A DNA stretch of 64,000 bases, from positions 25,024-89,023 of the IMG/VR virus record IMGVR_UViG_3300037657_000053. One strand, 5' to 3'. Below are positions 3,108 through 60,656 of the stretch, piece by piece. Numbering within the stretch: the first letter of the stretch is position 1; each line of letters starts with the position of its first letter. The translations under genes were made by a program, and so were the position numbers. This DNA is from a virus. The notes beneath the pieces were generated by a model, which did no database searches, had not been told where the DNA came from, and saw only the letters and a list, made by a program, of their open reading frames with translations.

Positions 3108-3137
3108 GCTGGAAACCCGGGTTTACAAGGTGAAGTC

Positions 3138-4697
3138 ATGACCGTTCGTGACCGTTCGGCGCCCATGCTTCTCGTGCGCCTTCAAGATCAGAACAATGAA
3201 TACCGGGTCGTGACCGACTCGGTTCTCTCGTTTTCGTACACCGACGCGGAACGCAAAACCGACACGGTGAAGATCACCGTTGATAACTCGAACCTTGAAC
3301 AATTCGACGATCCGGTTTGGAGGAAGGGGGGGCGAATTCGGGTTTCGTGGGGTTATCCCGGCGCTATGGCGCCCGAGCGAACGTGTGTGATCACTTCTGT
3401 GAAGGGGTTTCGTGAGCTCTCGATCGAGGCGAACGGTGAAGACGTGACGATGAACACTATTCAACGTCAACGATCTTTCGAGTCAATGACGATCTCTCAG
3501 ATTGCCGAACAGATCGCCGACGAGTATGGTTTCGGGCCCGATGTTCGGTTCATCGACGACACAGGTGAGCGGCGTTTGATCGTCGCACAAGCGAATCTGA
3601 CAGATGCTCAATTCTTGCGGCAACGTGCGAGCGAAGAAGGTTTTGAATTTTACGTCGATTTTGACGGCTTCCACTTCCACGAGCGGCGGCTTGGGGAACC
3701 CCCGGTTCGAGTTCTTCGATACTTCATCGATCAAGGCGCGGGCGACTTTATCGGCGATCCGTCAATTGAGAACGATCTCACGGCTCGCCCGGGGCGCGTT
3801 CGAGCTCGGGGGCGCAATCCCCGAACCCGAACCGATATTGACGTTGCGGCTGATAACGCGAGCGATAACCATCGAGACACTCTCGCAGAGACGGTCGAGT
3901 TGATCGATCCCGATACAGGTGACGCTTCGACTGTCGAGCATCGCGTCGCTTCCGAGTCGACGATCAGAACACCGGCAAGCAATGACGAACGAGCGAGCCG
4001 TGGGGCTCGGGGTCGATTCAGGCGAGCTCAACAAGTAGCGGTCAAGATGACTTGTTCGATCATCGGCGATCCGACTCTTTTAGCGAAGACGATCGTCCAA
4101 GTCGAGGGAATGGGCCGTCGGCTCTCGGTGAAATACTACATAACCGAGGTGACACACGATCTCGCCCCTTCGGGCTATGAATGTAAGTTGAAGATGGTTT
4201 CGGATGGTCACGGTGGACACTCGACGGTGAGCCGGCAAGCAGAGGGGCTTTCGATGATCGGTGTTCAACAGCAACGCTCGAATCGCTCTCGAGGGGGTGG
4301 TTCCTCGGGAGACGTCGCGGGAAGGCTCTCACGGGCTCTCAGCGCGGCGAGAGCGGCGGGCGATACAGACTCCGTTCGAGCTCTTGAACGCGCTCAGAGG
4401 GCCTATCAGGGCGGCGGAAACGCCAACCGGGCGGAAGTGTCTCGAGCTCTCGATCAAGTCGCTCGGAATCCGAACGCTTCGAGCGAGGTTCGGGGCGAAG
4501 CGGCGGCGGCTCGAGGCGAACTCAATCAACGGGGAGCCGAGACGGCTTCAGGTGGGCGCCCGAATCGGAACGTGGCAAATGATCGAGAGAATGATTCTCT
4601 CGAGCCGGTCGAGGTGATTGATCCTGACTCGGGAGCTTCGATGATTCGTTATAACCAGACGCCCGGCCGGGGCTCAACTCCTCGGTCTTCGAGGTGA
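3138..4697 (+). CDS. Baseplate hub (late control D / gpD-like)
   Basis: TISQIAEQIADEYG and QANLTDAQFLRQRASEEGFEFYVD, KYYITEVTHDL motifs; synteny. Confidence 0.8.
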   Translation: MTVRDRSAPMLLVRLQDQNNEYRVVTDSVLSFSYTDAERKTDTVKITVDNSNLEQFDDPVWRKGGRIRVSWGYPGAMAPERTCVITSVKGFRELSIEANGEDVTMNTIQRQRSFESMTISQIAEQIADEYGFGPDVRFIDDTGERRLIVAQANLTDAQFLRQRASEEGFEFYVDFDGFHFHERRLGEPPVRVLRYFIDQGAGDFIGDPSIENDLTARPGRVRARGRNPRTRTDIDVAADNASDNHRDTLAETVELIDPDTGDASTVEHRVASESTIRTPASNDERASRGARGRFRRAQQVAVKMTCSIIGDPTLLAKTIVQVEGMGRRLSVKYYITEVTHDLAPSGYECKLKMVSDGHGGHSTVSRQAEGLSMIGVQQQRSNRSRGGGSSGDVAGRLSRALSAARAAGDTDSVRALERAQRAYQGGGNANRAEVSRALDQVARNPNASSEVRGEAAAARGELNQRGAETASGGRPNRNVANDRENDSLEPVEVIDPDSGASMIRYNQTPGRGSTPRSSR

Positions 4698-5251
4698 TTG
4701 TGCGACCGAACTATGACGATCCAATTCCCCCTATTCTCGGGCTCGAGATCGGTGAGGTGATCGATCGAGACGATCCAGAGGGGCTCGGTCGAGTGAGAAT
4801 CCGAATCCCCGGATTGATCGATCGCTCTAATTGGGCTTGGCCCCTCGGGGTCTCAGGTGGCGGGTCAAGAGATGAGGGCTTCTTCAATGTTCCCCCGCTT
4901 CACTCAGAAGTCGGGGTTCTCTTCAAGCAAGGGCATCCCGATCACCCCTATTACATGCCGGCGAATTGGGGAACCGGCGAGCCCCCCGAAGCGAGTAGTG
5001 AGGGCGATCCCGACGTGAAGGTGATCGCCTTGAAAGATTATGATGTGATCGTCGATACGCGCCCGGCGTCGAAGAGCTTCAAGATCGTCGACAAGTCGAG
5101 TTCTCGAGACGTGATCGAGTTCAATGGAATCACTCGAGCTCTCACTCTCAAGGCGACTTCTGGGATCACGATCGAGGCGACCGGCGAGGTTCGGATCAAC
5201 GGGTTACAAGTCATAATCAACGGAATCCCGGCCGGGCTCGGTCGGTTGTGA
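4694..5251 (+). CDS. Baseplate spike (gpV / gp5 OB-fold)
   Basis: DPEGLGRVRIRIP...WAWP...GFFNVPPLHSEVGVLFKQGHPDHPY. Confidence 0.85.
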   Translation: MIVRPNYDDPIPPILGLEIGEVIDRDDPEGLGRVRIRIPGLIDRSNWAWPLGVSGGGSRDEGFFNVPPLHSEVGVLFKQGHPDHPYYMPANWGTGEPPEASSEGDPDVKVIALKDYDVIVDTRPASKSFKIVDKSSSRDVIEFNGITRALTLKATSGITIEATGEVRINGLQVIINGIPAGLGRL

Positions 5252-5258
5252 GGCGAAT

Positions 5259-5951
5259 ATGGTTTGCGTTATGGCTACGGTGGGCGATCAGTCGGTCACG
5301 GTGAGACTTCCTGGGGGTGCGACGCTTCAACCCATGATCTCGGTTCCCTTTCCGACGAACCTTCAAATCGTGAAGAACCTCCTCTCTCAGGCTTCGTCGG
5401 CTCTCGCCCCTCTCTTACCGGTCTTCAACATAATTGACGCGATCATCGCGATCAAAGACTTCGCGAGCTCGGTTCCCGAGTTGATCGTGAATCCCCCGGC
5501 CGTTGTGGAAGCGATTACGAATCTTGTTGAGAAGGTCGCCGCTCTCGCGAGCTTGATTCCGCAACTATCGGTTCCCCTTCTCATCGTCGATCTCGTCGGT
5601 GTGGTGATCCTCGCTCTTCAAGGTCTTGTGACTGAGCTTCAAGCGATCGTCGAACAACTCGAGAGGATCGAGGCGGCTCGTCAGATTGCACAAGACGAAG
5701 GAAACGTGGCTCTTCTCGAGATGACGATTTGCGCCGATGATCTGCTCGCGTCGGTTCAGGAGAATCTCTCGAATTCCCTCGGGCCGCTCAACTCGCTCTT
5801 CTCGGTGATCAACATCTTTCTCGAGTTGATCGGTCAAGATCCGATTCCGACTCTTGACGATCTTCCCGATGATCCGAATGAGGCGATCGACACCTTGAAC
5901 GCGCTCGTCGAGACCCTCACAATCATTCGACAGGCAATCCCGATTCCGTAG
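5259..5951 (+). CDS. Hypothetical virion-associated helical protein
   Basis: 230 aa ORF with RBS, within the baseplate module. Confidence 0.55.
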   Translation: MVCVMATVGDQSVTVRLPGGATLQPMISVPFPTNLQIVKNLLSQASSALAPLLPVFNIIDAIIAIKDFASSVPELIVNPPAVVEAITNLVEKVAALASLIPQLSVPLLIVDLVGVVILALQGLVTELQAIVEQLERIEAARQIAQDEGNVALLEMTICADDLLASVQENLSNSLGPLNSLFSVINIFLELIGQDPIPTLDDLPDDPNEAIDTLNALVETLTIIRQAIPIP

Positions 5952-5995
5952 CGGGGCGGTTCCTGGTACACTCAACCGAGAGGTGAGGCGATCTC

Positions 5996-7808: not shown

Positions 7809-8327
7809 GTGCCTTCGAGCGCAACCTATACCCTAACCACTCCCGGGGCTCCCGCGCCTTCAGGGGGCGTTACCGGGGCAGGAATCGCCCCTTCCTCCGG
7901 TCCCGACTTCCTCGGCTTCGGATTGCTCGCTCCGTTCCAACGAACGGCGGCCGACTTCGCGAACGCGGGGGGAATGGAACACCTTCAATCTATGATCGGA
8001 CAGGTTCTCGGCACCATGGCGGGGTCGGACTATACGGAAGGTGAGATTCCTTGGAGATCCGACTTTGGTTCGCTGCTTCATTTACTCCGTCATCGAAACA
8101 ACGATCCGGTCACGGCAGAGCTTGCCCGAGTCTACATTGGCGAAGCTCTCGCTCGTTGGATTCCTCAGATTCGTTTGATCGACGTGCGAACCGAAAAGCG
8201 CAAGGGCCCCGAGGGCGAAGAGAACGTTCTCGAGGTGAGGATCAAGTATCGAATCGTTGGGATTCAACAAGCCGGGAACGAGGTTCTCGGTCAACCGATT
8301 TCACAATCCGTCTACCTTCCCGCATAA
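7809..8327 (+). CDS. Baseplate wedge / sheath initiator (gp25 / gpW-like)
   Basis: GEIPWRSDFGS...EALARWIPQIRL motif. Confidence 0.85.
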   Translation: MPSSATYTLTTPGAPAPSGGVTGAGIAPSSGPDFLGFGLLAPFQRTAADFANAGGMEHLQSMIGQVLGTMAGSDYTEGEIPWRSDFGSLLHLLRHRNNDPVTAELARVYIGEALARWIPQIRLIDVRTEKRKGPEGEENVLEVRIKYRIVGIQQAGNEVLGQPISQSVYLPA

Positions 8328-8415
8328 TAGAACCTCGACATTGTAAACCCGGGTTTCCGCGCGAGTGACGCCGAAGACGACTCGGGTTATAGTCGTTTGA
8401 AGGAAGGGGCTTCAA

Positions 8416-11513: not shown

Positions 11514-11553
11514 TAATTGTCTCGTGTAAACCCGGGTTTCCAAGAGGTATGTC

Positions 11554-17125: not shown

Positions 17126-17126
17126 C

Positions 17127-18382: not shown

Positions 18383-18511
18383 GAGTCGATCCTTTCGTGG
18401 TTGTCCCGATTATCGGACGGTTGATCAACTTCTCGAGTGGTGGAAACCCGGGTTTACACTTGAAATGGTTTGACGATGTGACATGCCTCGCCCATGTGAT
18501 ATGATTCAAGC

Positions 18512-19531: not shown

Positions 19532-19862
19532 AATCGGGCCGCCGGTCCGCTTCTTCTCGAAGGCGTCCCCCTTGCGTCTTCGGTGTGGAAGTGAAATTTC
19601 CGGCGGCCCGATTGGTCTCCCCCCTAACAACCCCCCTCTATTCTCTTTCTAAGTTATAAACAACAGATTCTTAGATCTAAGAATCTAAGAGAATAATCAA
19701 ATGTATAACTAAGAGGGTGTGACTCACGGTTGTCCTCGCTCAAAGAACCCTTCGGGTTCTTTTCGCTGCGGAAACCGAGTCACACCCTACGCGCACGCGC
19801 GCGAGGCGCGGCGGGGTGCCTCGAGACGAGAGAACACCGGAAAGTTGGAAACCCGGGTTTCC
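19532..19862. other. Candidate replication origin / structured intergenic region
   Basis: 14-bp inverted repeat 19532-19545/19600-19613, AT-rich tract with 22-bp palindrome 19665-19686, UUCG hairpin 19742-19762, CGCG run, 16-bp palindrome; just upstream of the replication genes. Confidence 0.45.
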
Positions 19863-21828: not shown

Positions 21829-22412
21829 TCTCGAGGAAGAAAATCAAACCGGGAACCGCGTCGGTCGTTGCGGTAGTCTTGGAAACCCGGGTTTCCAAAC
21901 CATTACAACTCGGTTTTCAACTCGACGATCTCAGAGAGAACAGGAAGAAGGCGGCGTTTGTTGATGCCTTCTTGAACCACGGGCAGGGGAAGAGACCGAC
22001 GAAGGGTAAGGTCGGGAGGGCGAAGGCGACCCCAATCGAGCTCGCCGTCGCCGAAGCGAAGAGGCGATCTCGTGAGGGCGATTGGTCGGGAGCGAAGGGG
22101 AAGGTATTTGTTGGTTTGTATGCTCTTTGCCATGAGATAGTTTATGGCGACGTTCCTCTTGAGCTCACCGAGAATCAAGAGCTCACGATCGGGGCCCGTA
22201 TGGTGAACCGAGTTCTTCACGACTTCTTCGATGATGATCCCGACGCTCTTGTCGAGTTCATAAAATGGTCGTGGGAAGCCGAGAAGAGGAAAGAGTCGTG
22301 GGCTCTTCGCAACGGGATTAGTCGTCAACGAATGAGAGTGAGACTTCAATTCTCTGCTCGCTTGGTTCAAGATTATCGGACCGAAAAACAGAGAAGTGGA
22401 CGTCGAAGGTGA
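21825..22412 (+). CDS. Hypothetical protein (possible replication accessory)
   Basis: ATGA overlap; directly upstream of DnaB; contains a 16-bp palindrome in frame. Confidence 0.55.
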   Translation: MISRKKIKPGTASVVAVVLETRVSKPLQLGFQLDDLRENRKKAAFVDAFLNHGQGKRPTKGKVGRAKATPIELAVAEAKRRSREGDWSGAKGKVFVGLYALCHEIVYGDVPLELTENQELTIGARMVNRVLHDFFDDDPDALVEFIKWSWEAEKRKESWALRNGISRQRMRVRLQFSARLVQDYRTEKQRSGRRR

Positions 22413-25587: not shown

Positions 25588-27609
25588 ATGTCAACTGTCC
25601 CCGCTACTGCTGAAGATCTTCTCGCCGGTCTCAATGCCGAGCAGAGAGAAGTCGTCGAGTTTTTCACAGGGGCCGCTCTCGTCGTCGCGGTTGCGGGTTC
25701 GGGCAAGACCCGCGCTCTCGTTCATCGGATCGCTTATCTGATTAGAGAGCGCAATGTGAATCCCGGCGAGATTCTTGCGGTCACCTTCTCGAAGAAGGCG
25801 GCCGAAGAGATGAACGAGCGGCTCCGGTCGCTCGGGGTCTACGATTGCCGAGTTGGAACGTGGCATTCGTTGTGCTGGGAGATCATTCGGAAAGAATGCC
25901 CGGAGTATCAAACTGAATGGGAGCTCGACACGAAGGATCGATTCCGCGTCGTCGTCAAGACCGCTATCGGTTGGCAGGGGATGAAGTGGCAGGGTGCCGA
26001 TCTGCAAACGATTCTTTCCTTCATCGGGATTTGTAAGAGTCGGCTCGCCGAACCGGGAACCCCCGAAGCCTTCGCGATCGCTCAAGAGCTCTTCGACTCG
26101 AACCCGTGCGGGAAGAACGATCCGCACCTTCTGAGCGAAGCCTATTTCAGATCTCAAGAGGGGGCCGAGCAACGTCGGATCTTGACCTTCGACGATATGC
26201 TCGTGATCGCCTATCGCCTTCTGTGCGACGAAGATGTGAGGCTTCGTTGGTCCGGTCGCTTCAATTTCATGCTTCAAGACGAGGCGCAAGACGAGAACAT
26301 GGCTCAGGTCGCGATTGCTGAGAAGCTCGCTCGCGATCACGGGAACTATATGTGCGTTGGCGATCCGGCTCAGTCGATCTATGGGTTCCGTGGTTCCGTT
26401 CCCTCGAAGCTTCTCGCCTTCGAGATCGAATGGAACGCTCGCGTGATCCGAATGAGTAAAAATTACCGTTCGGTGGACGCGATTCTCGGCGCGGCGAATG
26501 GGGTGATCCGGGCGATGGACCCGACGACTCATCTCGGGGTCATGATGGAGGGCTGTAGGGGCGACACGACTGAGATCAACGTGATCGAGCTCGAAGATAT
26601 GGACGAAGAGGGGCGGGCGATTGTTGACGAAATGAAGGCTCGTCATGAGTCGGGCGCCGAGTGGTGCGATATGGCCGTTCTCTATCGCACGAACGCACAA
26701 TCTCGTGGTCCGGAAGAATTTCTCATTGCTAACCGCGTTCCCTATGTGGTGATCGGCGGGACGAATTTCTACAACCGGAAAGAGGTCAAAGACCTTCTTT
26801 CTTATCTTCGCGTCGCGGCCGACCGTGCGAATGAAGCCGACTTCAAGCGGTGCATCAATACTCCCTTCAGATATCTCGGGAAAGCCACCGTCGATCATTT
26901 CGTTGGGGATCGTCGTCCCCGCGAGAATTGGACGGCTTCGGTTCGCCGCGTCGCCGATTCGGGTCGTGGGATTCAGTACCGACAGAAGACGGCCGCCTAT
27001 GAGTGGGCCGGTCTCATTGACTCGATCGCTCAGTCGATGATGATCCGTGAAAAGGCGCGTCTCGACTTCGAGACCCGTCTCATTCTCGAAGACTCCGAAC
27101 CCGATGCGGTTCGCCCACGCATCCGAGATCACCTTCCCGCCGCGATTCTTGAGAGGGTGATCAAAGAGACTGACTTCGTGAAGTATCTCACTCGAGACGA
27201 GGGCGCCGAGACGGTCGAGAATAACCGCGTGAGTAACGTTCGCGAGCTCGTGCGGGCCGCCGAACGGTTCACGACGGTACATGAGCTTCTCGACTATATC
27301 GACGAGACCGTTCGGGCGGCAGAAGAGGCGTCGAAGGATCACGACGCGAACCGCGTAACGCTCTGCTCGCTTCATAGGTCGAAGGGTCTCGAGTGGAAGT
27401 CGGTTTGGATCGTCGGTGCGAACGAGAAGATTCTGCCTCACGGTCGCGCGACTGATATCGAGGAAGAGCGCCGCCTTTTTTATGTTGGCGTGACTCGCGC
27501 TATGAATGAACTTACCATCTCTCGGGTAAGAATTGCGGCATTCGGTGCGCGAGTGATCGGGCTCGAACCGTCTCGCTTCCTTGCCGAAGCCGGTCTCGAG
27601 GTGCTTTAG
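25588..27609 (+). CDS. uvrD: UvrD/PcrA SF1 helicase
   Basis: LNAEQ, AVAGSGKT, DEAQD, VGDPAQSIYGFRG, NYRS, SKGLEW, EERRLFYVGVTRA; ATG 25588 with RBS AAAGGTG. Confidence 0.95.
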   Translation: MSTVPATAEDLLAGLNAEQREVVEFFTGAALVVAVAGSGKTRALVHRIAYLIRERNVNPGEILAVTFSKKAAEEMNERLRSLGVYDCRVGTWHSLCWEIIRKECPEYQTEWELDTKDRFRVVVKTAIGWQGMKWQGADLQTILSFIGICKSRLAEPGTPEAFAIAQELFDSNPCGKNDPHLLSEAYFRSQEGAEQRRILTFDDMLVIAYRLLCDEDVRLRWSGRFNFMLQDEAQDENMAQVAIAEKLARDHGNYMCVGDPAQSIYGFRGSVPSKLLAFEIEWNARVIRMSKNYRSVDAILGAANGVIRAMDPTTHLGVMMEGCRGDTTEINVIELEDMDEEGRAIVDEMKARHESGAEWCDMAVLYRTNAQSRGPEEFLIANRVPYVVIGGTNFYNRKEVKDLLSYLRVAADRANEADFKRCINTPFRYLGKATVDHFVGDRRPRENWTASVRRVADSGRGIQYRQKTAAYEWAGLIDSIAQSMMIREKARLDFETRLILEDSEPDAVRPRIRDHLPAAILERVIKETDFVKYLTRDEGAETVENNRVSNVRELVRAAERFTTVHELLDYIDETVRAAEEASKDHDANRVTLCSLHRSKGLEWKSVWIVGANEKILPHGRATDIEEERRLFYVGVTRAMNELTISRVRIAAFGARVIGLEPSRFLAEAGLEVL

Positions 27610-28205
27610 TGGGTCGCTTTGAATCCGACCTTCTCGGGCTCCGTTCTGGTGAGCTCTCTTTCGAGATCTTCACCAGGCGGAACCGGGAACGGTTCGCGAA
27701 GTGGGCATCCTATTTCATTGACCGTTACCGTCCACATGGGCTCGATATCGACGATCTCGTTCAAGACGGGTTGATCGAGGCATGGCGAGCCGTCGACGGT
27801 TGGGAAGAAAGACTCGGAGTTTCGATTCAACGCCGAGTCGAATACAAGGTCGGTGAGCGTATGGATCGAGAGGTGAAGCGAGCTCTCGGGTGGCCGCGAC
27901 GCGACCGAGACAAGCCGGCTCAACAAGTTTTCGCTCCTATGGCGATCGAATGTGCTGTTTCGTCAGCGATAGGAGTCGAGAAGAGGATCGAGCTCGCCGC
28001 CGTCGTTTCAACGCTTTCGTGTCCTCTTGAACGCGACGTAACGATCGGGATTGGGATGGGGGCTTCGATTCGGGCGGTTGCTGCGTATCTCTATTCTGAC
28101 CCCAGAAAACGACTGTGGTACGAATTCGATTCGGGAGATCATGCCGTTCGATGCGTTCGGGCGGCCGTCAAAAAGGTAACGAAAACGTTGGAGAAAGCAC
28201 CATAG
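27609..28205 (+). CDS. Phage sigma70-family factor
   Basis: Region 2-like LDIDDLVQDGLIEAWRAVDGW; degenerate region 4-like LERDVTIG...SIRAVAAYL. Confidence 0.65.
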   Translation: MGRFESDLLGLRSGELSFEIFTRRNRERFAKWASYFIDRYRPHGLDIDDLVQDGLIEAWRAVDGWEERLGVSIQRRVEYKVGERMDREVKRALGWPRRDRDKPAQQVFAPMAIECAVSSAIGVEKRIELAAVVSTLSCPLERDVTIGIGMGASIRAVAAYLYSDPRKRLWYEFDSGDHAVRCVRAAVKKVTKTLEKAP

Positions 28206-28336
28206 GCCGATCGATCTGGTTTGGAAACCCGGGTTTCCAAGAAGAAAAAAGTTGACGGTCTCATAAAAAAGTTGAAAGCTAGTCCGATAATCATAAGGAA
28301 GCCGAAAGGGCGAAAGCCCGGGGAGAGAGAAAAAAA

Positions 28337-33088: not shown

Positions 33089-34438
33089 ATGGGTCTCGGA
33101 TTGGCGAGCTTTCTCAACCACAACGAAGGGTCTGCTCGAAAATTTCTCAAGGACTGGAAGAAGAAGGGATCGATCGTGGTGTGGCTCTATACCCGAGCAG
33201 ATATCGCTTGGGCTTCGTGGAATCATTCCTTTGTAGCATATGGAACCTATAAGAACGACAAGGACGAAGAGGTCGAGTGTCTCAAGTATCCCCGCTTTGT
33301 CTCGCCCGATCCCGAGGTGGTCCATCAGAATCAATACTTCCGCAACGAGGGTGACGATTCGATGCAAATACCACCGTCGCTCGATCCATTCCTTCGCCTT
33401 CGGGAATGGCTCCGACTCGATTGCGATTTGCCTCTCGATACCGTCATCTTCCGTTGGGAGAACCCCCACCCGAAGCCCGGGAAGAGCCCGATCATCGAAT
33501 GGCAACGTGGGCACCTTGCCCGGTTGGTCGATCGTGGGCGGTACAACTTCGGTGCGTCGCTCGACACGAAACTTGAGTATTTCTTCGTCGTTGTCGACAA
33601 CGAGAAACCACAAGATGGGGCCCAGATCGTTCGGGGAACCAAGCTTCTCGGAGACGTGATGAAGAAGGAGATCGGACATCAGATCGAGAGCGATGGTGAG
33701 AAGGGCAATCCGCTGATCCATCCGTATGCGTTCAAGTGGGTCTATGACGATTCGGCCGGTTCTCCGATGGATTCATACCGCGCGTTTCGCTATAACGCGG
33801 CGGAACTCACACCGCAGATCCGCGAAGCGATCACGAGCTCCGAGTATCCCGATCCGTCGCAAGATTGCAAACCTCGGGCGGGCGACAAGGCGAAGATCCG
33901 GGCTGCCATGGAAGCTGCCGCACAAGTCGATCTCCCATGGGATCGACTCTTCGTTCCCGAGTGGGAAGACGAAGAACCCGGCGATTTCAACTATGGTGCG
34001 AATGCGGGCTCTCAGGTGGTCTCTCAGGGCTCGGGAACCTCGGGGGGTGCCACGGGGCGGCCGGCTTCTCAGACGGGCTCTCAGGGGCCGTCTCGCGAAC
34101 GGGAGAGCCATGCGGTGAGCGGCGCGCAATCTGCCCGTCGGAAGAAGGTCAACAAGCCCGAGCCCCCGCCTCCGAATGTCGAGATGATCAAGTGCGATGA
34201 CTGCGACACGATGCTTCGACCGGATCAAGCGAAGTGTCCGAATTGTGGAGCGGAATACGAGGTCGATTCTGAACCCACCGTTTCCTCCAATTCGGTGCAA
34301 CAGGAAACCCGGGTTTCCAACGGAACGACCGGAACGACCGGAACGACCGACGTCACATGCTGGTCTTGTGGTGGTCCCGTCGTGAAGGGAAGTTGCACGA
34401 ATTGCGGGCTCGAAGCAGGAGACGAAATTCCGTTCTAG
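33089..34438 (+). CDS. Putative single-stranded DNA-binding protein with zinc ribbons
   Basis: C-terminal GDEIPF SSB-type tip; four CxxC motifs; next to RecA; ATG 33089. Confidence 0.6.
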   Translation: MGLGLASFLNHNEGSARKFLKDWKKKGSIVVWLYTRADIAWASWNHSFVAYGTYKNDKDEEVECLKYPRFVSPDPEVVHQNQYFRNEGDDSMQIPPSLDPFLRLREWLRLDCDLPLDTVIFRWENPHPKPGKSPIIEWQRGHLARLVDRGRYNFGASLDTKLEYFFVVVDNEKPQDGAQIVRGTKLLGDVMKKEIGHQIESDGEKGNPLIHPYAFKWVYDDSAGSPMDSYRAFRYNAAELTPQIREAITSSEYPDPSQDCKPRAGDKAKIRAAMEAAAQVDLPWDRLFVPEWEDEEPGDFNYGANAGSQVVSQGSGTSGGATGRPASQTGSQGPSRERESHAVSGAQSARRKKVNKPEPPPPNVEMIKCDDCDTMLRPDQAKCPNCGAEYEVDSEPTVSSNSVQQETRVSNGTTGTTGTTDVTCWSCGGPVVKGSCTNCGLEAGDEIPF

Positions 34439-36058: not shown

Positions 36059-36807
36059 CAAGGATACTTCTAACGGCCGATTGGCACATCGACGCGGTAA
36101 CGGGCGGTCTTCCTCGAGTTGATGAGATCGATCCCTTCGTAGAAGAGCTCAAGGAAGCGGTCATTCGGGAGAAAGTTTCTCATTTGATTCACATGGGAGA
36201 TTTTTTTGACCCGGGCGGTATGCTCTGCTCGTTCTATACCGAGAAGGTGATCATGATTGTGAGCGACCTTCTCGCCGTCGATCGGCTCGACACGATCACC
36301 CTTCTCGCCGGCAACCACGACGTGATCGAGAGCTCTCGAGGAACCACAACGATCAGCCCGGTTGCCGCCGCATTCTCGGGCGAGCCGAGGGTCCAAGTCT
36401 TCGAGCAACCTTCGAGGTTCGTTCTCACGACTCAACCCGATCAGATCATTCGGGGGCTCGCCCTTCCCTACGTTGCCCGTGCGGCCTATCGAGAGGAAGC
36501 CTTTCCCGAAGCCGTGAAGGGGCTCTCAGAGCTTGGAGACTACCCCCTGATAGTCGTCGGTCACATGACCGTTCCGGGGGCTGTGCTCGGGTCTGAGAGC
36601 TCGGATATGCCACGGGGACGAGAGATCGATCTTCCGGTCTTCGAGCTCTCGAAGCTTCGTCCGGTTTTCATCGCGAACGGTCACTATCATCGAGCACAAG
36701 TCACCGAATCGAACGTCGTGATTCCGGGCTCGCCTTTCCGCTTCACCTTCGGCGAAAGGAACGACAAGAAAAAGGGATTCACGATTGTCGAGATCGTTCA
36801 CAAGTAA
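36055..36807 (+). CDS. sbcD: SbcD/Mre11 nuclease, metallophosphoesterase domain only
   Basis: TADWH, GDFFD, GNHD, GHYH, PGSPFRFTFGE; ends right after KGFTIVEI. Confidence 0.85.
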   Translation: MTRILLTADWHIDAVTGGLPRVDEIDPFVEELKEAVIREKVSHLIHMGDFFDPGGMLCSFYTEKVIMIVSDLLAVDRLDTITLLAGNHDVIESSRGTTTISPVAAAFSGEPRVQVFEQPSRFVLTTQPDQIIRGLALPYVARAAYREEAFPEAVKGLSELGDYPLIVVGHMTVPGAVLGSESSDMPRGREIDLPVFELSKLRPVFIANGHYHRAQVTESNVVIPGSPFRFTFGERNDKKKGFTIVEIVHK

Positions 36808-36838
36808 ACCCGGGTTTCCAAGCTCGAAAGGGGAACAT

Positions 36839-43267: not shown

Positions 43268-44096
43268 AGAAGTTGAAGAGGTGAGTGAATTCAGTCGTGC
43301 TGTATGGGATGAAGTGGCGCAGCGGCTTTCGCGCACGGGGTTTTCTGGTCTCGTCTTTCGGGTTGTATCGGGTCCGAACATGCCATTTGCGGTTGAAGCG
43401 GGTGGCGCGGTTCAATCGGCTCGGGCCGTTGTAAACCCGGATTTCCGAGAGAAGCTCACGAAGACGGTTCGTGATGTGATCGTTTCGCGTTCGCCCGGAT
43501 CGTTGTGTGTTCTTTCGAGGGGTCCATCTTGGCCCGCCTTTACGATCGGACTTTCGCAGGAGATCGAGTTGATGGAAGATTATGCTCCGATGATTCATCG
43601 CCCTTACATTCCGGAAGGTCTTTCCCAACGCGATACTCCCGAGCCCCCCGAGCCCCCCGAGCTCGAAGAGCTTGTGAAGGTGACGAACGATCCGCCGCCC
43701 GTCTTCCTTCCCGATCCAGGGGCCCCGTCCCGGCTCGAGACGGCCCCTGAGATGCGAGGAGAGCTCACCCCCCTACCACCGACACCCTCGAGCTTCGCGT
43801 GCGTCCACGAGCCTTCAGAGGGCTCTCTTCGCAGGATCGCCCGAGAGCTCGGCGATTTGGTGGTCGAGAAGAACCGAGCCTATGGAAACTCGGTTGCCAC
43901 GTCGGCGGTGGCGATGGCTCTTCTCTATCCCGAGGGGGTTCGACCGGATCAATTGAGGGATATGCTGACGTTGGTTCGGATCTGGGATAAGATGAAGAGG
44001 ATCGCGACGAAGAAGGACGCTTTTGGGGAAAGCCCGTTCCGCGATATCGTTGGCTATGCTCTGCTCGGAGCGGAGAACGATGAAGCGGATAAGTAG
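43260..44096 (+). CDS. Protein with C-terminal DUF1599/Nmad1-like domain
   Basis: EKNRAYGNS...RIWDKMKRI...DIVGYALL. Confidence 0.65.
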   Translation: MSEEVEEVSEFSRAVWDEVAQRLSRTGFSGLVFRVVSGPNMPFAVEAGGAVQSARAVVNPDFREKLTKTVRDVIVSRSPGSLCVLSRGPSWPAFTIGLSQEIELMEDYAPMIHRPYIPEGLSQRDTPEPPEPPELEELVKVTNDPPPVFLPDPGAPSRLETAPEMRGELTPLPPTPSSFACVHEPSEGSLRRIARELGDLVVEKNRAYGNSVATSAVAMALLYPEGVRPDQLRDMLTLVRIWDKMKRIATKKDAFGESPFRDIVGYALLGAENDEADK

Positions 44097-47261: not shown

Positions 47262-47300
47262 TTTGGCTTGGAAACCCGGGTTTCCAAAAGGTTGGTTGGT

Positions 47301-50138: not shown

Positions 50139-50452
50139 AGACTCGGAGGAAGGTTCGCCCGGTCGAATGTGAGGGGTTCCTCTTCACCGTTCTCGAGGGC
50201 GAGATCAAGCGAGAGGTTCAACTCATGGGATCGGGTGGCTTGCTCGGGGCGGGCTCGCTCGCCACGATTCGGGGCAACCGGTTCACGATCGAGCGGGCGA
50301 CCGAAAGGGTTCTCAGCCGAGCTCGAGAATGGTTCGAGCTCGAGGGGCGGTTGAGAGAGTGGTTGGGCGATGGTTACGATCCATCCGACCGAATCCGCGA
50401 ATTCGTTCCCGACGAGATCCTCTCGGTCCGACCGCTTCTCTTCGATTTGTAA
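50135..50452 (+). CDS. Hypothetical protein
   Basis: GTGA overlap with TerL stop; its TAA lies in a palindrome. Confidence 0.55.
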   Translation: MKTRRKVRPVECEGFLFTVLEGEIKREVQLMGSGGLLGAGSLATIRGNRFTIERATERVLSRAREWFELEGRLREWLGDGYDPSDRIREFVPDEILSVRPLLFDL

Positions 50453-50483
50453 ACCCGGGTTTACAAGCCCGACCGAGCCCCCC

Positions 50484-51163: not shown

Positions 51164-51490
51164 ATGAGAATTTGGTTTCCCATTCCGCCTTTGTGTTTAG
51201 ATCGTCAACGGCTTCTCGGCGAACATCGGGAATTGCATGCGATCTGGTCTATCCTTTGTCAGAATCGCGCGGGATATCGGAATCATCCCGAGGTGAAGCG
51301 TTGGATTGATCGTCTCGATCGTCTTTATGAAAGGCATGAACATTTGGTTTCAGAGATGACGAGACGGGGATACTACCATAAATCATTATTGATTCCGATA
51401 GGATATACGAGTGAGTGGCCGAATACTTGGGAGACGATCGAGATGATGCGATTGAAATTGGCGGAAAAACAAGGGGTTGAGCCGAAGTAA
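51164..51490 (+). CDS. Pyrimidine-dimer DNA glycosylase / endonuclease V family protein
   Basis: LDRQRLLGEHRELHAI...YRNHPEVKRW...EMTRRGYYH. Confidence 0.75.
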   Translation: MRIWFPIPPLCLDRQRLLGEHRELHAIWSILCQNRAGYRNHPEVKRWIDRLDRLYERHEHLVSEMTRRGYYHKSLLIPIGYTSEWPNTWETIEMMRLKLAEKQGVEPK

Positions 51491-51544
51491 ACCCGGGTTT
51501 CCAAGGGGGGCGAAAAAAAAGATCGCCCCCCTCGATCTTTTTTC

Positions 51545-51924: not shown

Positions 51925-52653
51925 ATGACTGAGATAGCGGCAAGATATCTCTCGGCAACGCCTCCATTGGAGGGTATCGAGATGGTTGGTGTGGGTGTCA
52001 GATTGACGGCGACGTCTATCTGTTCGAGGTATGCGCTCTTTGGCGTGCCGGCTAGCCGGTTCGATGTTCTTATTGAGGAAGGGCAACCTTCTTTCGGATG
52101 GGCGGTTGAGGTGGTAAGTAAGTCTGGTCGCTATGACGGTCGGACGCGCGATCGATTGACGTTCTGCCATCGGCGAGGTGGGATGCTTCTACATTCGGAA
52201 TCGGGCGTTTGCGCTTGCAGTATCGTTCGCCGTCGTCAAACAACGGTCTCGCTCGTATCCGAATTCGGCCCGGTGTGGTCGGCGACTTACGACACGTTGC
52301 GGTGGCAACTCGATCCGGCCGGGGGGTTGATTCGGATTGTCGGTTGGCATCTTACCAGATATTTCAAGATGCTCGTTGTCGATCATTCCGCGACAGATCT
52401 GGCAGGCGAGATCGAGGCGATGAATCCGAATTGGCGCGCGATGACTCTATCTCAAGTCAATCGGTTGGTCTCTCGGCATTTGTATCGTTTGGCGCGCGAT
52501 ATGGGGTGGAGAAAGCTCACATTGCGCGAGAGGCTTCGACTCGGGCTTGATGAGGCGTCGCCGCAATGGCAACGTGAGAGCGATCTTGGTGTGTTGTATA
52601 GACGCACCGGGTGCGGCGACTTCACGCACCGGTCGGCTCGGGGTGAATCATGA
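51925..52653 (+). CDS. Hypothetical protein
   Basis: Long ORF whose stop overlaps the clamp start; start uncertain. Confidence 0.5.
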   Translation: MTEIAARYLSATPPLEGIEMVGVGVRLTATSICSRYALFGVPASRFDVLIEEGQPSFGWAVEVVSKSGRYDGRTRDRLTFCHRRGGMLLHSESGVCACSIVRRRQTTVSLVSEFGPVWSATYDTLRWQLDPAGGLIRIVGWHLTRYFKMLVVDHSATDLAGEIEAMNPNWRAMTLSQVNRLVSRHLYRLARDMGWRKLTLRERLRLGLDEASPQWQRESDLGVLYRRTGCGDFTHRSARGES

Positions 52654-53939
52654 AACGCATGCGGGCAAAGACACGGATCGCGACCCTCTCGGATTTGTCG
52701 CGACCGATCGTCATTCTCTCGAGGATCGCGAATGCTCGAACCAACGACGAGCGAATCACTGTCTCGAGTCGGGGCAGTGAGCTCGTTCTTTCGGCTTCGA
52801 TCGGGAGGGAATCTTATCGGTTCGATCAAACCGGACCGGTAGCCGGGAAGGTTTGGTTTGAATACCGGGCCGATGCCGAGGGGGCGATCTCTCAAGAGCT
52901 CGGGATCGAGCCCCGTCTCTTCAAGGTCGCGGCCGGTTCGGCAAAGGGGCTCACTCTCGAGGTGAGGAACGAGCCAACCGGCGAGGGGTCGCAAGTTCGG
53001 ATCAAGACGACCCTCGAGATCACCGACGTCGATGGAGTGACGACAGAATGCCTCGCCTTGGGCTCAGATGGGGTCGAGAAGGCCCGAAGCTTCGCAGGGA
53101 ATCCTTGGGGCCGGGCGACAGTGGGCGAGCTCGTGGGGCCTTTCTCGTGGGCATGTCGGGCAATCTCGGATGACGACGGCCGGCCGCACCTTGCCGCTCT
53201 CGCTCTTATCGGCTCGCGAGTGATCGCGACCGATGGGCATAGGCTACACGTCGGGCCGCTCCCTTCGGGCCTTCATGTCGAAATCGAGTCGTTGATTCCT
53301 TCGATCGTTGCCCGAGCTCTTCTCGAGATCTTCAAGTCGAGTTCGCCGTGGGATGAAGTCGTGATCGAGGGGAACGGTGAGGGTCTCATGATCGATGTCG
53401 GGTCTCATTGGTCGATGGCGGTTCGCTTTCCGACTTTGAGCGACAACGGAACCGAAAGGGTCGTTCGCTTCCCATCCTATACCAAGGTGATTCCGAATCC
53501 GTGGGATCGGCCGGGGGGCATGGTAGTGGAGTGTGACTCGGGGCGGCTCTTGAAGGCGATGAAAAAGTCTCAAGGTGTTTTGAAGGGTAACTTCGTGAAC
53601 GGTGTGGTTATCCGTCCCGAGCCGAATCAGGTGAGGATCACGGCCGAGAACACCGACAATAATATTCGGGTCGAGATGAAGGTTCCGGCCGAGACCAGGC
53701 TCGGAAACCCGGGTTTCCTCTACTATGCGAACGTTGACTATGTGATCGACGCCTTGCTCGATTCGGGCGACGTTGAGATCTATATCGGGCCCGAAGCGTT
53801 CGAGGGAACCTATAAGACGGCCGGGGCGAACGCTTGGGTCGACGAAGAAGATAGGAAGGGGCTCGGGTATACCACCGACCCAACCGTCTTTTCTCACGGT
53901 GAGGATACCTTCGCCGTCGTTATGCCGATGAGACTTTGA
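52650..53939 (+). CDS. dnaN: DNA polymerase sliding clamp (beta subunit-like)
   Basis: ISDDDGRPHL...IATDGHRL, FPSYTKVIP, NVDYVIDAL, VVMPMRL C-terminus. Confidence 0.85.
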   Translation: MKRMRAKTRIATLSDLSRPIVILSRIANARTNDERITVSSRGSELVLSASIGRESYRFDQTGPVAGKVWFEYRADAEGAISQELGIEPRLFKVAAGSAKGLTLEVRNEPTGEGSQVRIKTTLEITDVDGVTTECLALGSDGVEKARSFAGNPWGRATVGELVGPFSWACRAISDDDGRPHLAALALIGSRVIATDGHRLHVGPLPSGLHVEIESLIPSIVARALLEIFKSSSPWDEVVIEGNGEGLMIDVGSHWSMAVRFPTLSDNGTERVVRFPSYTKVIPNPWDRPGGMVVECDSGRLLKAMKKSQGVLKGNFVNGVVIRPEPNQVRITAENTDNNIRVEMKVPAETRLGNPGFLYYANVDYVIDALLDSGDVEIYIGPEAFEGTYKTAGANAWVDEEDRKGLGYTTDPTVFSHGEDTFAVVMPMRL

Positions 53940-57481: not shown

Positions 57482-57550
57482 AGGTCTGACTCGAGACTGA
57501 TGTCGATCGTCTCTTTGAGGGGAATCGGAGCAAATCGAAAAAAAAAGTTC

Positions 57551-57620
57551 TTGACCTTCCTCTCTCGATAGTGCATAACGAAATCGAGGGCAACGTAGCC
57601 CGAGCAAAGAGAGTCGGAGG
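57551..57620 (+). promoter_or_regulatory. Early promoter cassette, copy 2
   Basis: TTGACC-17-CATAAC, GGGC-AACGTA-GCCC hairpin. Confidence 0.8.
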
Positions 57621-57627
57621 CTTCCCG

Positions 57628-58182
57628 ATGAAATTTTCCCGAGAGACGTTTCTTGTTGAGCAATGGATTGCCGAAGCTTGCGAGCTAGGGGAAGCTCCCG
57701 AGTTGATCGAGCGGATCGAGCTCGAATGGTCGAGGCGTCTCGTTCTCACGCTCGGAAAAGCGAATCGGCTAAATTGGACGATCAAACTTGCCGAAAAGGC
57801 TTGGTTTCTCATTTCGCTCGACGAACGAAGAGAGACAGTCTTTCACGAGGTAGCGCATTTGATAGCCCTACACGAAGGGGGCCTGAAGGCGTGGGATCAC
57901 GGGCCGACTTGGCGCCGAATAATGGCCAAGATCGGATATCCCCGGGCGAATGCGTGTCACGATTTGATCGAACAACTCTCGACGATCCGACGGAAGAATG
58001 TTCGTGTGATCGCTCGTTGTCAGTGTGATTCGGCCGGCGAAGTGTTCGGAGTTCGGCGAGCCGATGGAACGCATCTCATCACGCGGTCAATGGAGGCGAA
58101 GATCAAGGCGAACCCGTCGATCTGCCGTTGTCGGTTCTGTCGATGTGCGATCGTTCCGACCGGTGAGATCGTTCGCGTGTAA
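57628..58182 (+). CDS. SprT-like zinc metalloprotease
   Basis: ETVFHEVAHL...HGPTWRRIM, C-terminal Cys cluster; ATG 57628 with GGAGG. Confidence 0.85.
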   Translation: MKFSRETFLVEQWIAEACELGEAPELIERIELEWSRRLVLTLGKANRLNWTIKLAEKAWFLISLDERRETVFHEVAHLIALHEGGLKAWDHGPTWRRIMAKIGYPRANACHDLIEQLSTIRRKNVRVIARCQCDSAGEVFGVRRADGTHLITRSMEAKIKANPSICRCRFCRCAIVPTGEIVRV

Positions 58183-58203
58183 ACCCGGGTTTCCAAGCCC
58201 CTC

Positions 58204-59520: not shown

Positions 59521-59560
59521 TCGGCCAGAAAAAAAAGATCGATCCTCCTTCACTTTTTTC

Positions 59561-59628
59561 TTGACCTTCCTGCCTCGATAGCGCATAACAGAATCATCAG
59601 GGCAACGGAGCCCAAGAGGAAAGAGAGA
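59561..59628 (+). promoter_or_regulatory. Early promoter cassette, copy 3
   Basis: TTGACC-17-CATAAC AGAATCATCA GGGCAACGGAGCCC AAGAGGAAAGAGAGA. Confidence 0.85.
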
Positions 59629-59632
59629 CAAC

Positions 59633-59875
59633 ATGAATACCGCCGCCGCCAACGGAACCCTTATCACCGCCACCTTCTTCCACAACGGAATCTCTTACCG
59701 TGTGTCTTCCTTCAAGGGTGGTTCCCTCGAGATTTACTCCACCAATGGCTATTCCGACGCTCCCGGTCTCGAGCGTTTCCTCGGGTATGCCCGAGATGTC
59801 AATCTCGACCTTGCCGAGAAGGCGTTCGATGCCTTCCGCAAGGTTCCCGGGCAGCGGGCTCTCTTCCCCTACTGA
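59633..59875 (+). CDS. Small early protein
   Basis: ATG after cassette; ends QRALFPY. Confidence 0.65.
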   Translation: MNTAAANGTLITATFFHNGISYRVSSFKGGSLEIYSTNGYSDAPGLERFLGYARDVNLDLAEKAFDAFRKVPGQRALFPY

Positions 59876-59955: not shown

Positions 59956-60138
59956 ATGAAGATTCGAGCTATCGACGTGAGGTGTCCTGAGTGTGGCAGG
60001 CGAGCCGGCCTTCCCTGTAAGGGATCGAGGATTCCCGGGGCGAACACCTTCGGGGGTGGTTGGGGCGGCCCGGTCGATCTCGCCAGAGTGCATAAGGCGA
60101 GAGTCGAGCGGGCTCGTGATCTTCGTCATTCCGCTTGA
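59956..60138 (+). CDS. Small zinc-finger protein
   Basis: CPECG...PC...HKAR; RBS GAGGAG. Confidence 0.55.
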   Translation: MKIRAIDVRCPECGRRAGLPCKGSRIPGANTFGGGWGGPVDLARVHKARVERARDLRHSA

Positions 60139-60147
60139 TTTTTTCTC

Positions 60148-60211
60148 TTGACCTTCCCTCTTCGATAGCGCATAACAGAATCATCAGGGCAACGGAGCCC
60201 GGAAAGAGAGA
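60148..60211 (+). promoter_or_regulatory. Early promoter cassette, copy 4
   Basis: Same -35/-10/hairpin/RBS sequence. Confidence 0.85.
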
Positions 60212-60215
60212 CAAC

Positions 60216-60569
60216 ATGAGCGCGAGCACTCAGAGCCATTCCCTTCTCACCCTCGCCGTCAACGCGATCGCCGCCGTCGCCGCTCGTCAAGATCGTATTT
60301 CGTGCTGGAACGCGGGCGAAGCGACGATGAAGGAAGCGTTTGATGAAGCTCGGGTGAAGTATGGTTTCGTCCACGGGGAATTCGTCGCCGTCGTTCGTGA
60401 GGGGCGAGAGCTCGGGGTGATCGTTGCCGGTTCCTTTCATGACACGGTTCGGATCGTGTCGTGTTGCCGTTGTGACGAACCGGCTTCCTATGCGAGCAAT
60501 CGTGAACTTGGTAAGGTGATTTGTAGCGTATGCCGAGAGATCGAGCTTGATCATCCCGATCTCGGGTGA
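60216..60569 (+). CDS. Small early protein with CxxC pairs
   Basis: ATG 60216 after cassette; CCRC...CSVC. Confidence 0.6.
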   Translation: MSASTQSHSLLTLAVNAIAAVAARQDRISCWNAGEATMKEAFDEARVKYGFVHGEFVAVVREGRELGVIVAGSFHDTVRIVSCCRCDEPASYASNRELGKVICSVCREIELDHPDLG

Positions 60570-60656
60570 TCTCGTCTCGCCCGGGGGGATTTGGAAACCC
60601 GGGTTTCCAAAAAAAAATGTTCTTTCGTCCGATAATCGAAGCGAAGGGAGAGTGAA

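Follow-up and report, generated by a model that had tools for sequence, protein, structure and literature searches.

Short dyad-symmetric sequences repeated many times over one genome are known from several systems. In the Cluster O mycobacteriophages, a 17-bp dyad repeat occurs in tens of invariant copies across a lytic-looking genome (34 copies in Corndog), mostly in short intergenic gaps, sometimes inside genes and mostly away from promoters; five close relatives share one motif of 7-bp arms and a variable 3-bp spacer, and the authors predict a dimeric DNA-binding protein, the function being given there as unknown (PMC4351075). In the ParB-parS and Noc systems two DNA-binding domains, related by two-fold symmetry, sit on a 16-bp palindrome, and the Noc-binding sites (NBS) are many and dispersed (PMC7383237). 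On the IncP plasmid RK2, the ParB-family protein KorB silences genes genome-wide from many copies of a 16-bp palindromic operator, which precedes promoters either closely (4-10 bp) or at a distance (45 to more than 1000 bp); KorB has a CTP-binding N-terminal domain, slides as a clamp, partners with KorA and serves partition too (PMC11790492). In this study a comparable array was analysed in a 64,000-nucleotide window of viral DNA, bases 25024-89023 of the 89,023-bp contig IMGVR_UViG_3300037657_000053 (hereafter G000; estimated 83% complete), where a 16-bp palindrome with the core AAACCCGGGTTT is repeated from end to end. Our preferred reading, to which a probability of roughly 0.4 is assigned, is that these palindromes are sequence-specific double-stranded sites for a dimeric protein, with a ParB/Noc-fold protein of the phage (window 28337-29677) as the best candidate, and that they act in a KorB- or Noc-like multi-site manner at gene boundaries.

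Analysis of the window revealed 15 exact matches to G[GT]AAACCCGGGTTT[AC]C (3111 to 60608), the same number and coordinates as in an initial annotation of the sequence, and none in each of 100 dinucleotide-preserving shuffles; that annotation put the expectation at far fewer than one copy per 64 kb. Allowing up to two mismatches in the 12-bp core gave 18 matches against 2.6 expected (standard deviation (sd) 1.5, largest 6). The three added matches are the degenerate copies that the annotation had placed at 43431, 62502 and about 63968 (the last begins at 63969), and no other relaxed match was found. The whole contig G000 holds 21 core copies, and the core pattern read backwards, used as control, has no match in it. 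A flanking T before the 16-mer (17 of 21 copies) and A after it (19 of 21), described in the annotation as usual, make the element an 18-20 bp palindrome. Its account of the coding context was also borne out: the open reading frame (ORF) list and arithmetic place three copies in frame, two reading ETRVS and one GNPGF, and ORFs end at 36807, 50452, 51490 and 58182, so that the TAA within GTAA is the stop codon of the upstream gene in four copies (Table 1).

With 21 copies, at least 14 of them outside ORF bodies, the array falls in the class of the Cluster O repeat, a descriptive class without a mechanism in that account (PMC4351075). Unlike the Cluster O motif, the palindrome described here is contiguous and perfect, and relatives at 30-65% protein identity each carry a different one; there is no sequence or gene relationship between Cluster O and this phage. 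The annotation had also called the motif parS/NBS-like. A dispersed 16-bp palindromic site is indeed present (15 copies in the window and 21 in the contig, with T/A flanks), the CCCGGG centre is common to it and the Noc site as quoted in the annotation, and the parS and NBS strings quoted there both occur in PMC7383237. However, the A/T tracts of AAACCCGGGTTT are inverted relative to both, and the motif is neither parS nor the Noc site. No description of this motif came up in full-text literature searches, whether for the core string or for dyad repeats of phages.

The annotation had proposed mapping the motif over the full genome and related phages, and this mapping extended the array to a whole clade. 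In the viral collection, 66 stretches contain the exact 16-mer GGAAACCCGGGTTTCC, and they cluster in five contigs besides G000, with core counts of 18 (G001), 18 (G002), 16 (G003), 3 (G004) and 7 (G005, left out of the comparison). Contigs G001-G004 have 63-69% G+C against 55.5% in G000 and no nucleotide similarity to it (one 166-nt high-scoring segment pair in four comparisons); they share with it a syntenic replication module at 25-45% protein identity. The palindromic flanks are conserved within each phage and differ between phages (TT..AA in G000, GATT..AATC in G001, GTT..AAC in G002, G..C in G003 and AAT..ATT in G004), and G004 mostly carries the core variant GGAATCCCGGGATTCC. Proteins found in all five whole contigs are the helicase, a 195-aa protein, DnaB, primase, a sigma-like factor, the 446-aa protein of window 28337-29677, the family B DNA polymerase (PolB), a thymidylate-synthase-like protein and terminase.

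Further members were gathered by two markers, the clade-specific 195-aa protein (alignment A1) and then DnaB (A5), giving a sample of 32 distinct clade contigs including G000, of which 27 were read over 12-21 kb each, and six control loci in which the DnaB relatives are only distant. Of the 32 clade contigs, 28 were found to have a repeated dyad of 16-30 bp, in most cases perfectly palindromic and in most cases not the same from phage to phage; none was found in the six distant controls. In the first set, the stretch read contains a perfect palindrome in multiple copies in 15 of 15 contigs, and those of the ten new contigs all differ from one another, for example GAGTCTCCCCGGGGAGACTC (L229), GTTGTAACCTCGAGGTTACAAC (L230), GTTTAGACAGATCGATCTGTCTAAAC (L232), GACGGAAACACGTGTTTCCGTC (L237) and AAATCCAATTGGATCGATCCAATTGGATTT (L235). 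Among the 17 new contigs of the second set, a dyad family has at least three copies in ten (one of them, L253, scored by the count of a 7-bp arm only) and two copies in three; no repeated palindrome was found in the 12-21 kb read of L243, L244, L245 and L246. Several clade motifs look like stepwise derivatives of each other, as in the half-site series AACCC-GGGTT in G000-G003, L240 and L234, ATCCC in G004 and AACAC in L237.

The annotation had allowed for an abundant host repeat without positional conservation among related phages; instead, the palindromes of related phages were found at partly the same gene junctions. In G000, 14 of the 21 copies lie outside ORF bodies although ORFs, from a deliberately generous list, cover 92.3% of the contig (binomial p = 1.7e-11), and by our judgement three of the seven copies scored as inside ORFs probably fall in over-extended or spurious ones. 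The intragenic copies sit in insertions or linkers absent from orthologues. In the five whole contigs, 51 sites occupy junctions of co-directional genes, and the upstream stop codon is nearer than the next start in 39 of 50 untied cases (sign test p = 9e-5). Medians per phage are 7-21 nt to the upstream stop versus 28-254 nt to the next start; the downstream distances are if anything underestimated, because the longest ORFs were used. Many G000 sites occupy tight stop-to-start junctions, and several G003 sites start 0-2 nt past the stop codon and are followed by promoter-like TTGACA motifs. In 11 of 15 phages a site precedes the helicase gene by at most 750 nt (by at most 150 nt in five), several phages have one at the helicase/195-aa gene junction, and the PolB linker preceding the C-terminal extension carries a site in G001 and G003 (both ETRVS) and, with a different motif (RQIDLS), in L232. 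Site positions are partly conserved between phages although the palindrome sequences differ.

Some G000 sites precede the early cassette described below or the GTCCGATAATC motif. A role as promoter part was rejected: only 8 of the 27 promoter-like GGCATGATG motifs of G002 have a palindrome within 60 nt upstream, the spacing is variable (7-40 nt), and the palindrome is therefore not considered part of the promoter. Helical phasing in G003, where four sites lie 11, 20, 21 and 32 nt before TTGACA-like hexamers, was dropped as resting on four points with no echo in G000 or G002. A simple promoter/terminator scan gave counts no higher than in shuffles (terminators, 26 vs 24.3, sd 5.7).

Analysis of symmetry bears on whether DNA or RNA is recognised. 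All 15 motifs of the first set are even-length perfect palindromes, the central 4-6 bp included, and this centre-wide symmetry favours a double-stranded DNA reading because a hairpin loop has no need of central symmetry. Variation of the G000 16-mer is confined to position 2 (G/T) and its mirror position 15 (C/A), and the half-site combinations occur 9, 7, 4 and 1 times among the 21 copies (Fisher p = 0.61); half-sites in G004 are likewise independent (p = 0.29). Owing to this independent assortment, pairing is not preserved and no compensation is seen. The 24-nt RNA hairpins of G000 have a mean energy of -5.3 kcal/mol (range -0.7 to -10.4), 9 of 21 being weaker than -3, and 50-nt windows at sites (-11.5, sd 3.0) have no extra stability over random ones (-11.9, sd 4.2). 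No T run stands behind the G000 sites; G/C hairpins with T runs exist elsewhere in the contig, one of them directly after the copy at 51487. The sites lack the stable G/C hairpin and U tract of Rho-independent terminators. Because of the central symmetry, the independent half-site variants and the weak RNA hairpins, double-stranded DNA read by a symmetric dimer is favoured, and the results support the view that the sites behave as two-fold symmetric recognition sites in duplex DNA rather than as hairpins in RNA or as parts of ordinary promoters.

In relatives, asymmetric variants stand in either orientation within co-directional gene blocks (2 vs 6 in L261, 2 vs 3 in L255), which speaks against a role in sense-strand RNA. 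They also set the array apart from the stoperators of Cluster A mycobacteriophages, many distributed repressor sites that stop elongation and so illustrate a possible mode for gene-end sites; stoperators are asymmetric and are bound by a monomeric immunity repressor of temperate phages in the accounts cited (PMC9283540, PMC6550527). The sites described here have palindromic symmetry, and PHROG/Pfam scans of G000 and G001 revealed neither an integrase nor an immunity repressor family.

The candidate reader of the palindromes is the 446-aa protein. Its AlphaFold model (12-row alignment; predicted local distance difference test (pLDDT) above 90 for residues 200-330) shows two N-terminal helices and a four-cysteine zinc ribbon (C57, C60, C73, C76), a disordered linker, a DNA-binding domain at about residues 207-331 and a small beta domain at about 370-437. 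Comparison of residues 207-331 by VIA-align gave Z 11.6 to Spo0J 1vz0_B (root-mean-square deviation (rmsd) 2.8, 112 aligned), Z 11.4 to Spo0J-parS 4umk_C and Z 11.4 to the Noc domain on its site, 6y93_B (110 aligned, chain of 116). These three alignments have rmsd 2.6-2.8 over 110-116 aligned residues. The top ten rows are all ParB or Noc (Z 9.5-11.6), and the next, unrelated row has Z 4.9. Foldseek placed ParB-parS 6s6h first (E 0.047), and the domain superposes on 4umk, 6s6h and 6y93 at Z 10.2-11.4. By fold only, the protein is predicted to have a ParB/Noc-type DNA-binding domain. An atlas look-up gave weak leads to DUF3102 and HTH_ParB clusters, and Pfam DUF3102 matches 4 of 12 family members (best E 0.002). 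A homodimer predicted for residues 200-446 scored 0.68 against 0.00 for the best of three controls, a score reached by 20 of 30 proteins solved as one-chain pairs and by 1 of 23 solved as single chains; contact agreement between runs was at least 58% and partner pLDDT at least 65, so that the modelling supports a homodimer.

A protein with the ParB-fold domain is encoded in 12 of 12 first-set and 12 of 13 second-set loci that reach the region (24 of 25). The sole exception, L244, is also without the sigma-like gene and, in the 21 kb read, without a repeated palindrome; at 38% G+C it stands apart from the 47-71% of other clade members. The candidate gene follows the sigma-like gene wherever both are found, and a G000 palindrome lies between the two. 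The layout of window 27609-29677, a sigma-like gene and then a gene for a protein with helices and a zinc ribbon, is typical of sigma/anti-sigma pairs.

Under the preferred reading, each palindrome would be read by a symmetric dimer of a sequence-specific protein, most likely the clade-wide protein encoded directly behind the phage sigma-like gene. One protein with many identical palindromic sites, as with KorB on RK2 or Noc on a chromosome, would then serve as a genome-wide roadblock, insulator or organiser and not as a classical promoter operator. That this protein binds these sites, and with such an effect, is what we infer. Like the KorB operators, the phage sites are many and identical; the relation of the phage sites to promoters is mixed. 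Unlike KorB, the phage protein, a putative binder of the palindrome, has a zinc ribbon in place of the ParB N-terminal domain, which Pfam does not detect. From ParB and Noc it differs in having no detectable protein sequence similarity and no CTPase domain by Pfam, and its presumed half-site in the inverted A/T tract. The annotation had suggested loading or binding sites for a dimeric phage protein and had named 28337-29677 among the candidates. The dimeric protein gains a ParB/Noc-type domain by fold and a predicted homodimer, and no residue was found to track the motif. Loading or spreading in the ParB manner has no basis, because the ParB N-terminal domain was not found and the model shows helices and a zinc ribbon in that place.

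Other candidates for the reader fare worse. Proteins of Fis type (HTH_8) follow the primase gene in 11 of the first 15 phages; they are absent from G000 in a six-frame search at E up to 100, and also from L244, L255 and L260. The 195-aa clade-wide protein gave a confident model (pLDDT 81.5) with an uninformative best fold match (Z 5.3). For the Sigma70_r4 and ribbon-helix-helix proteins of G000 (Table 1), no relative was found in other phages.

Several observations weigh against the preferred reading, and they concern both the protein and the sites. Sequence searches with the candidate protein do not find ParB; the G000 protein has no Pfam family at E up to 0.01, and the ParB N-terminal domain was found neither in it at that threshold nor in the G001 orthologue at E up to 0.001. 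No alignment column is common to the four phages that share the core and to at most one of the other eight, and the putative recognition helices of the shared-core phages differ (HTLAYN, PTNAYQ, RTYAER and PNQAFD). This search for covariation between domain and motif, which found none, is a weak test with 12 sequences, since four residues suffice to switch specificity within the ParB/Noc family (PMC7383237). L243, L245 and L246 hold the protein, yet no repeated palindrome was found in the 12-21 kb read. Which motif a phage carries does not follow the replication-gene phylogeny: the nearest relatives of G000, at 43-56% identity in helicase, DnaB and primase, are L229 and L230, the palindromes of these three are unrelated, and the G000 core is common to the more distant G001-G003. 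L233 and L237 are likewise 57-65% identical and have different palindromes. In addition, one internal asymmetry recurs in 8 of 8 L261 copies (P = 0.004 if half-sites are independent) and in 5 of 5 L255 copies; one half of the L261 motif matches the L257 half-site exactly and the other half that of L258, and the asymmetry of L255 is in the centre. Such fixed asymmetric variants imply that the copies of a genome descend from one master sequence. Finally, 6 of 13 G004 sites extend the dyad by 6-12 bp, differently from site to site (5% in mismatched-partner controls), with perfect dyads reaching 28-40 bp, which a fixed-length binding site does not predict. Because of the fixed asymmetric variants and the lengthening arms, self-propagation and RNA hairpins stay as rivals.

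Self-propagation is somewhat unlikely in our assessment. On this account, short palindromes are copied to permissive places, or overwritten by gene conversion through the T4-like recombination and replication machinery of the phage, with no dedicated reader, and may merely mark recombination or module boundaries. Copies are identical over 16-30 bp within a genome and their flanks differ; the asymmetric sequences of L261 and L255 are fixed and stand in both orientations, the L261 motif is a half-site hybrid, the G004 dyads lengthen one by one, and the motif does not follow the replication genes. Intragenic copies lie in lineage-specific insertions and linkers; two G000 proteins read ETRVS there, as do the PolB linkers of G001 and G003. 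Shuffling by repeated promoter/terminator cassettes is known in T4-type phages, whose promoter early stem-loop (PeSL) sequences are repeated intergenic regulatory elements proposed to mediate modular shuffling; PeSLs are longer composites of promoter and stem-loop, and PeSL-like cassettes form a separate early-region family in G000 (PMC2839356, PMC4122927). What holds this account back is the persistence of the trait across a clade with core proteins just 30-55% identical, its absence from all six distant controls, and the recurrence of sites with unlike sequences at shared junctions (ahead of the helicase gene, between the helicase and 195-aa genes and, for G001, G003 and L232, in the PolB linker). 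Pfam scans of 51 G000 and 94 G001 proteins found no transposase or REP-associated transposase family (REP, repetitive extragenic palindromic). A length of 20-24 bp is short for homologous gene conversion. The rivals are not mutually exclusive with the preferred reading or with each other, and a reader that also drives the spread of its sites would fit most of the data.

Less probable still is that the palindromes act as intercistronic RNA hairpins, either to terminate transcription without a U tract, to mark processing sites or to stabilise the 3' end of the cistron upstream. The position of sites close behind the upstream stop (39 of 50 junctions; 0-2 nt in G003, ahead of the TTGACA-like motifs) counts in favour of such a role. 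Consensus hairpins across the first set span only -7.7 to -15.4 kcal/mol, longer palindromes go with lower G+C (r = -0.73, n = 15, the phages not being independent), and the G004 arms are lengthened by complementary bases specific to each site. The RNA account is opposed by the perfectly symmetric centres, the uncompensated mismatches produced by the variants, the G000 hairpins no more stable than background, and the lack of T runs after sites in a genome that has them at ordinary G/C hairpins. Moreover, asymmetric variants stand in both orientations, the six L261 copies that share one orientation would give a C-A mismatch in sense RNA, and structure alone needs no identical sequence in every copy.

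The search of candidate hosts suggested by the annotation showed that the core sits in a REP-like family of five Chloroflexi genomes; the motif is not simply a host repeat, given the junctions shared by related phages. With at most one mismatch, the 16-mer core occurs 27, 90, 77, 33 and 130 times in these genomes of about 5 Mb each, against none for the backwards control. The copies there form the tips of longer imperfect hairpins in tandem clusters that resemble REP and bacterial interspersed mosaic elements (BIMEs); one family shares GGAAACC(C)GGGTTTCC with the phage, and short palindromic repeats after genes are common to both. In one of the genomes, G010 (L212-L226), two long hairpins alternate in tandem clusters with periods of about 69 and 122 bp, and GGGAAACCGGGTTTCC forms the tip of one of them. 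These data could point to sites for a host factor, or to host REP-type repeats acquired or mimicked by phages of one host lineage, and the decoupling of motif from phage phylogeny and the lack of a phage protein unusually conserved among shared-core phages would suit this. We nevertheless regard it as improbable. The exact palindrome is a minority variant in the host (in G010, 4 exact copies vs 130 with at most one mismatch), and the 16-mer is present in only 5 of 401 sampled Chloroflexi genomes. Among the matches listed from a scan of one genome per species, most are single hits and a few Chloroflexi assemblies have repeated ones; further hosts with the motif may exist. The host elements are imperfect, at least 30 nt long and clustered with a second hairpin, whereas the phage copies are single and perfect with conserved flanks specific to each phage; the Y1 transposase that accompanies REP/BIME elements was not seen in the Pfam scans. 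All four multi-copy viral carriers compared (G005 left out) belong to one phage clade, and a 20-kb stretch of G003 has no spacer-like or prophage-like match in the five Chloroflexi genomes, giving only short matches of 69-88% identity. The Chloroflexi likeness may reflect shared hosts or chance and leaves the clade-wide trait unexplained.

Cleavage or nicking sites of a site-specific phage nuclease, for example seeding recombination-dependent replication or clamp loading, are very improbable: the strict invariance over 12-20 bp, the restriction-site-like centres (CCCGGG, CTCGAG, ATCGAT, CACGTG, GTCGAC), and the HNH endonuclease genes found in PHROG/Pfam scans beside a T4-like recombination set would fit, but no nuclease family is clade-wide except the SbcCD-like pair and no inspected contig end coincides with a site.

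Table 1. Palindrome copies and genes for DNA-binding candidates, in coordinates of the 64,000-nucleotide window.
Feature	Position	Strand	Context
Palindrome GGAAACCCGGGTTTAC	3111..3126		Stop of ORF 2772-3107 lies 3 nt before; ATG 3138 lies 11 nt after
Palindrome GTAAACCCGGGTTTCC	8343..8358		Intergenic, beyond ORF 7809-8327
Palindrome GTAAACCCGGGTTTCC	11526..11541		Stop 12 nt before, next ATG 12 nt after
Palindrome GGAAACCCGGGTTTAC	18442..18457		Within 162-nt gap preceding ORF 18512-19228
Palindrome	19847..19862		Helicase gene (19903-21414) 40 nt downstream; followed by promoter-like motif GTCCGATAATC
Palindrome, reads ETRVS	21881..21896		Non-conserved N-terminal extension of clade-wide 195-aa protein (21825-22412)
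Palindrome	28223..28238		Between sigma-like and ParB/Noc-fold genes; followed by promoter-like motifs
Palindrome, reads ETRVS	34303..34318		Non-conserved C-terminal linker of 476-aa zinc-ribbon protein (33008-34438)
Palindrome, TAA is stop of SbcD-like gene (36046-36807)	36804..36819		
Palindrome	47270..47285		8 nt past stop of ORF 46974-47261
Palindrome GTAAACCCGGGTTTAC, TAA is stop of ORF 50135-50452	50449..50464		
Palindrome, TAA is stop of Pyr_excise gene (51164-51490)	51487..51502		Followed by G/C hairpin with T run and early promoter-like cassette
Palindrome, reads GNPGF	53703..53718		Inside clamp-like ORF 52650-53939
Palindrome, TAA is stop of SprT-like gene (57571-58182)	58179..58194		
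Palindrome	60593..60608		In 87-nt gap; followed by A run and GTCCGATAATC motif
Degenerate palindrome GTAAACCCGGATTTCC	43431..43446		One core mismatch
Degenerate palindrome	62502..62517		Two core mismatches
Degenerate palindrome	63969..63984		Two core mismatches; surroundings resemble first 80 bases of the contig
Sigma-like gene (Pfam Sigma70_r2, E 3.6e-7)	27609..28205	+	Immediately upstream of candidate reader in relatives holding it
Candidate reader, 446 aa	28337..29677	+	N-terminal helices and zinc ribbon, linker, predicted ParB/Noc-type domain, C-terminal beta domain
DNA-binding candidate, 191 aa, Sigma70_r4 helix-turn-helix	56715..57290	+	No relative found in other phages
DNA-binding candidate, 64-aa ribbon-helix-helix	57287..57481	+	No relative found in other phages

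PHROG and Pfam scans identified portal, sheath, tube and baseplate genes in G000, which is thus a myovirus, together with a T4-like replication and recombination set (family B polymerase, two helicases, DnaB, primase, and UvsX-like, SbcCD-like and clamp-like proteins) and nucleotide-modification genes; nearly all genes are on the plus strand. No ParA-like ATPase was found in these scans of G000 and G001 ORFs, many ORFs being without any match and G000 being incomplete. For 12 kb of the window, megablast found no match to cultured relatives in the phage collection, where the best protein-level PolB and terminase matches have 23-30% identity. The only sequencing run listed is a DNA run of a groundwater metagenome, possibly the source, and no RNA run is listed. 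The sole tRNA of the window is a tRNA-Gln (anticodon TTG, 46881-46951). In L261, the two palindrome copies at 13881 and 16130 stand directly before sequence resembling a tRNA T arm (GGTTCGATTCC) and may be part of tRNA genes or adjoin them. Intein signatures (Intein_splicing with LAGLIDADG; Hint) were found in two large proteins of G001, the terminase homologue among them, at L071:2343-5351 and L072:7284-10274, and the 1417-aa PolB ORF of G003 (15695-19945) is probably interrupted too.

Several other repeats were observed in G000 and its relatives. An early-region cassette, composed of a hairpin and T run, AAAAAAGTTCTTGACC, a 17-nt spacer, CATAAC and a conserved leader AGAATCATCAGGGCAACGGAGCCC, is repeated in the window at 51491-51581, 57482-57570, 59521-59699, 60993-61215, 61774-61890, 62580-62628 and 63055-63214, with a further copy at G000 bases 1367-1457, and is similar to the promoter-terminator cassettes (PeSLs) known from T4-type phages. 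Diverged copies of one module of about 60 nt stand at the two contig ends (G000 bases 1-80 and window 63940-64000), in the order G-rich hairpin, palindrome or degenerate palindrome, A run; the contig probably breaks inside a repeated early region. Short tandem repeats resembling CCCCTGAG (50453-50576) follow right behind the palindrome at 50449. In the replication module, about ten copies of a promoter-like T(T)G(A/T)CCGATAATC motif stand a few bases before ribosome-binding sites (approximate positions 19880, 28290, 29730, 32640, 42285, 46590, 53945, 54960, 59055 and 60635) and may be the target of the phage's own sigma-like factor. In G002, 27 copies of GCGGCATGATGGGG on both strands have an ATG 3-6 nt later and represent a candidate promoter class for leaderless genes; similar CATGA[TC] motifs were found in G003, G004, L233 and L239. 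The whole G000 contig has no copy of GGATCC against 31.5 expected by a Markov estimate, one TTAA against 60.3 and 44 GTAC against 95.6, an avoidance of short palindromes that looks like restriction-site avoidance.

Dispersed invariant dyad repeats in lytic phages have been described, in Cluster O, and never explained; in this study they appear as a trait of a whole uncultured clade, in which sequences turn over between lineages and some positions persist, and for which a concrete candidate reader of ParB/Noc fold is available. A fuller picture, which we hold tentatively and consider rather unlikely as a whole, is that of an uncultured clade of myoviruses with a T4-like replisome in which every lineage maintains a private perfect palindrome of 16-30 bp, some 20 copies of it placed at conserved gene boundaries. 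The reader would be a fast-evolving protein in which a zinc ribbon takes the place of the CTPase domain beside the ParB/Noc domain, encoded together with a sigma-like factor. The pair would insulate or silence the whole genome and, since the palindrome code varies from relative to relative, would in addition label the DNA of the phage itself when related phages co-infect. If the link to the reader fails, the clade would be a clean case of short palindromes spreading and homogenising inside viral genomes. If it holds, the array would be a phage counterpart of KorB-type long-range regulation, built without a CTP switch, and the clade would provide a natural series of more than 20 protein-site pairs for studying the turnover of DNA-binding specificity.

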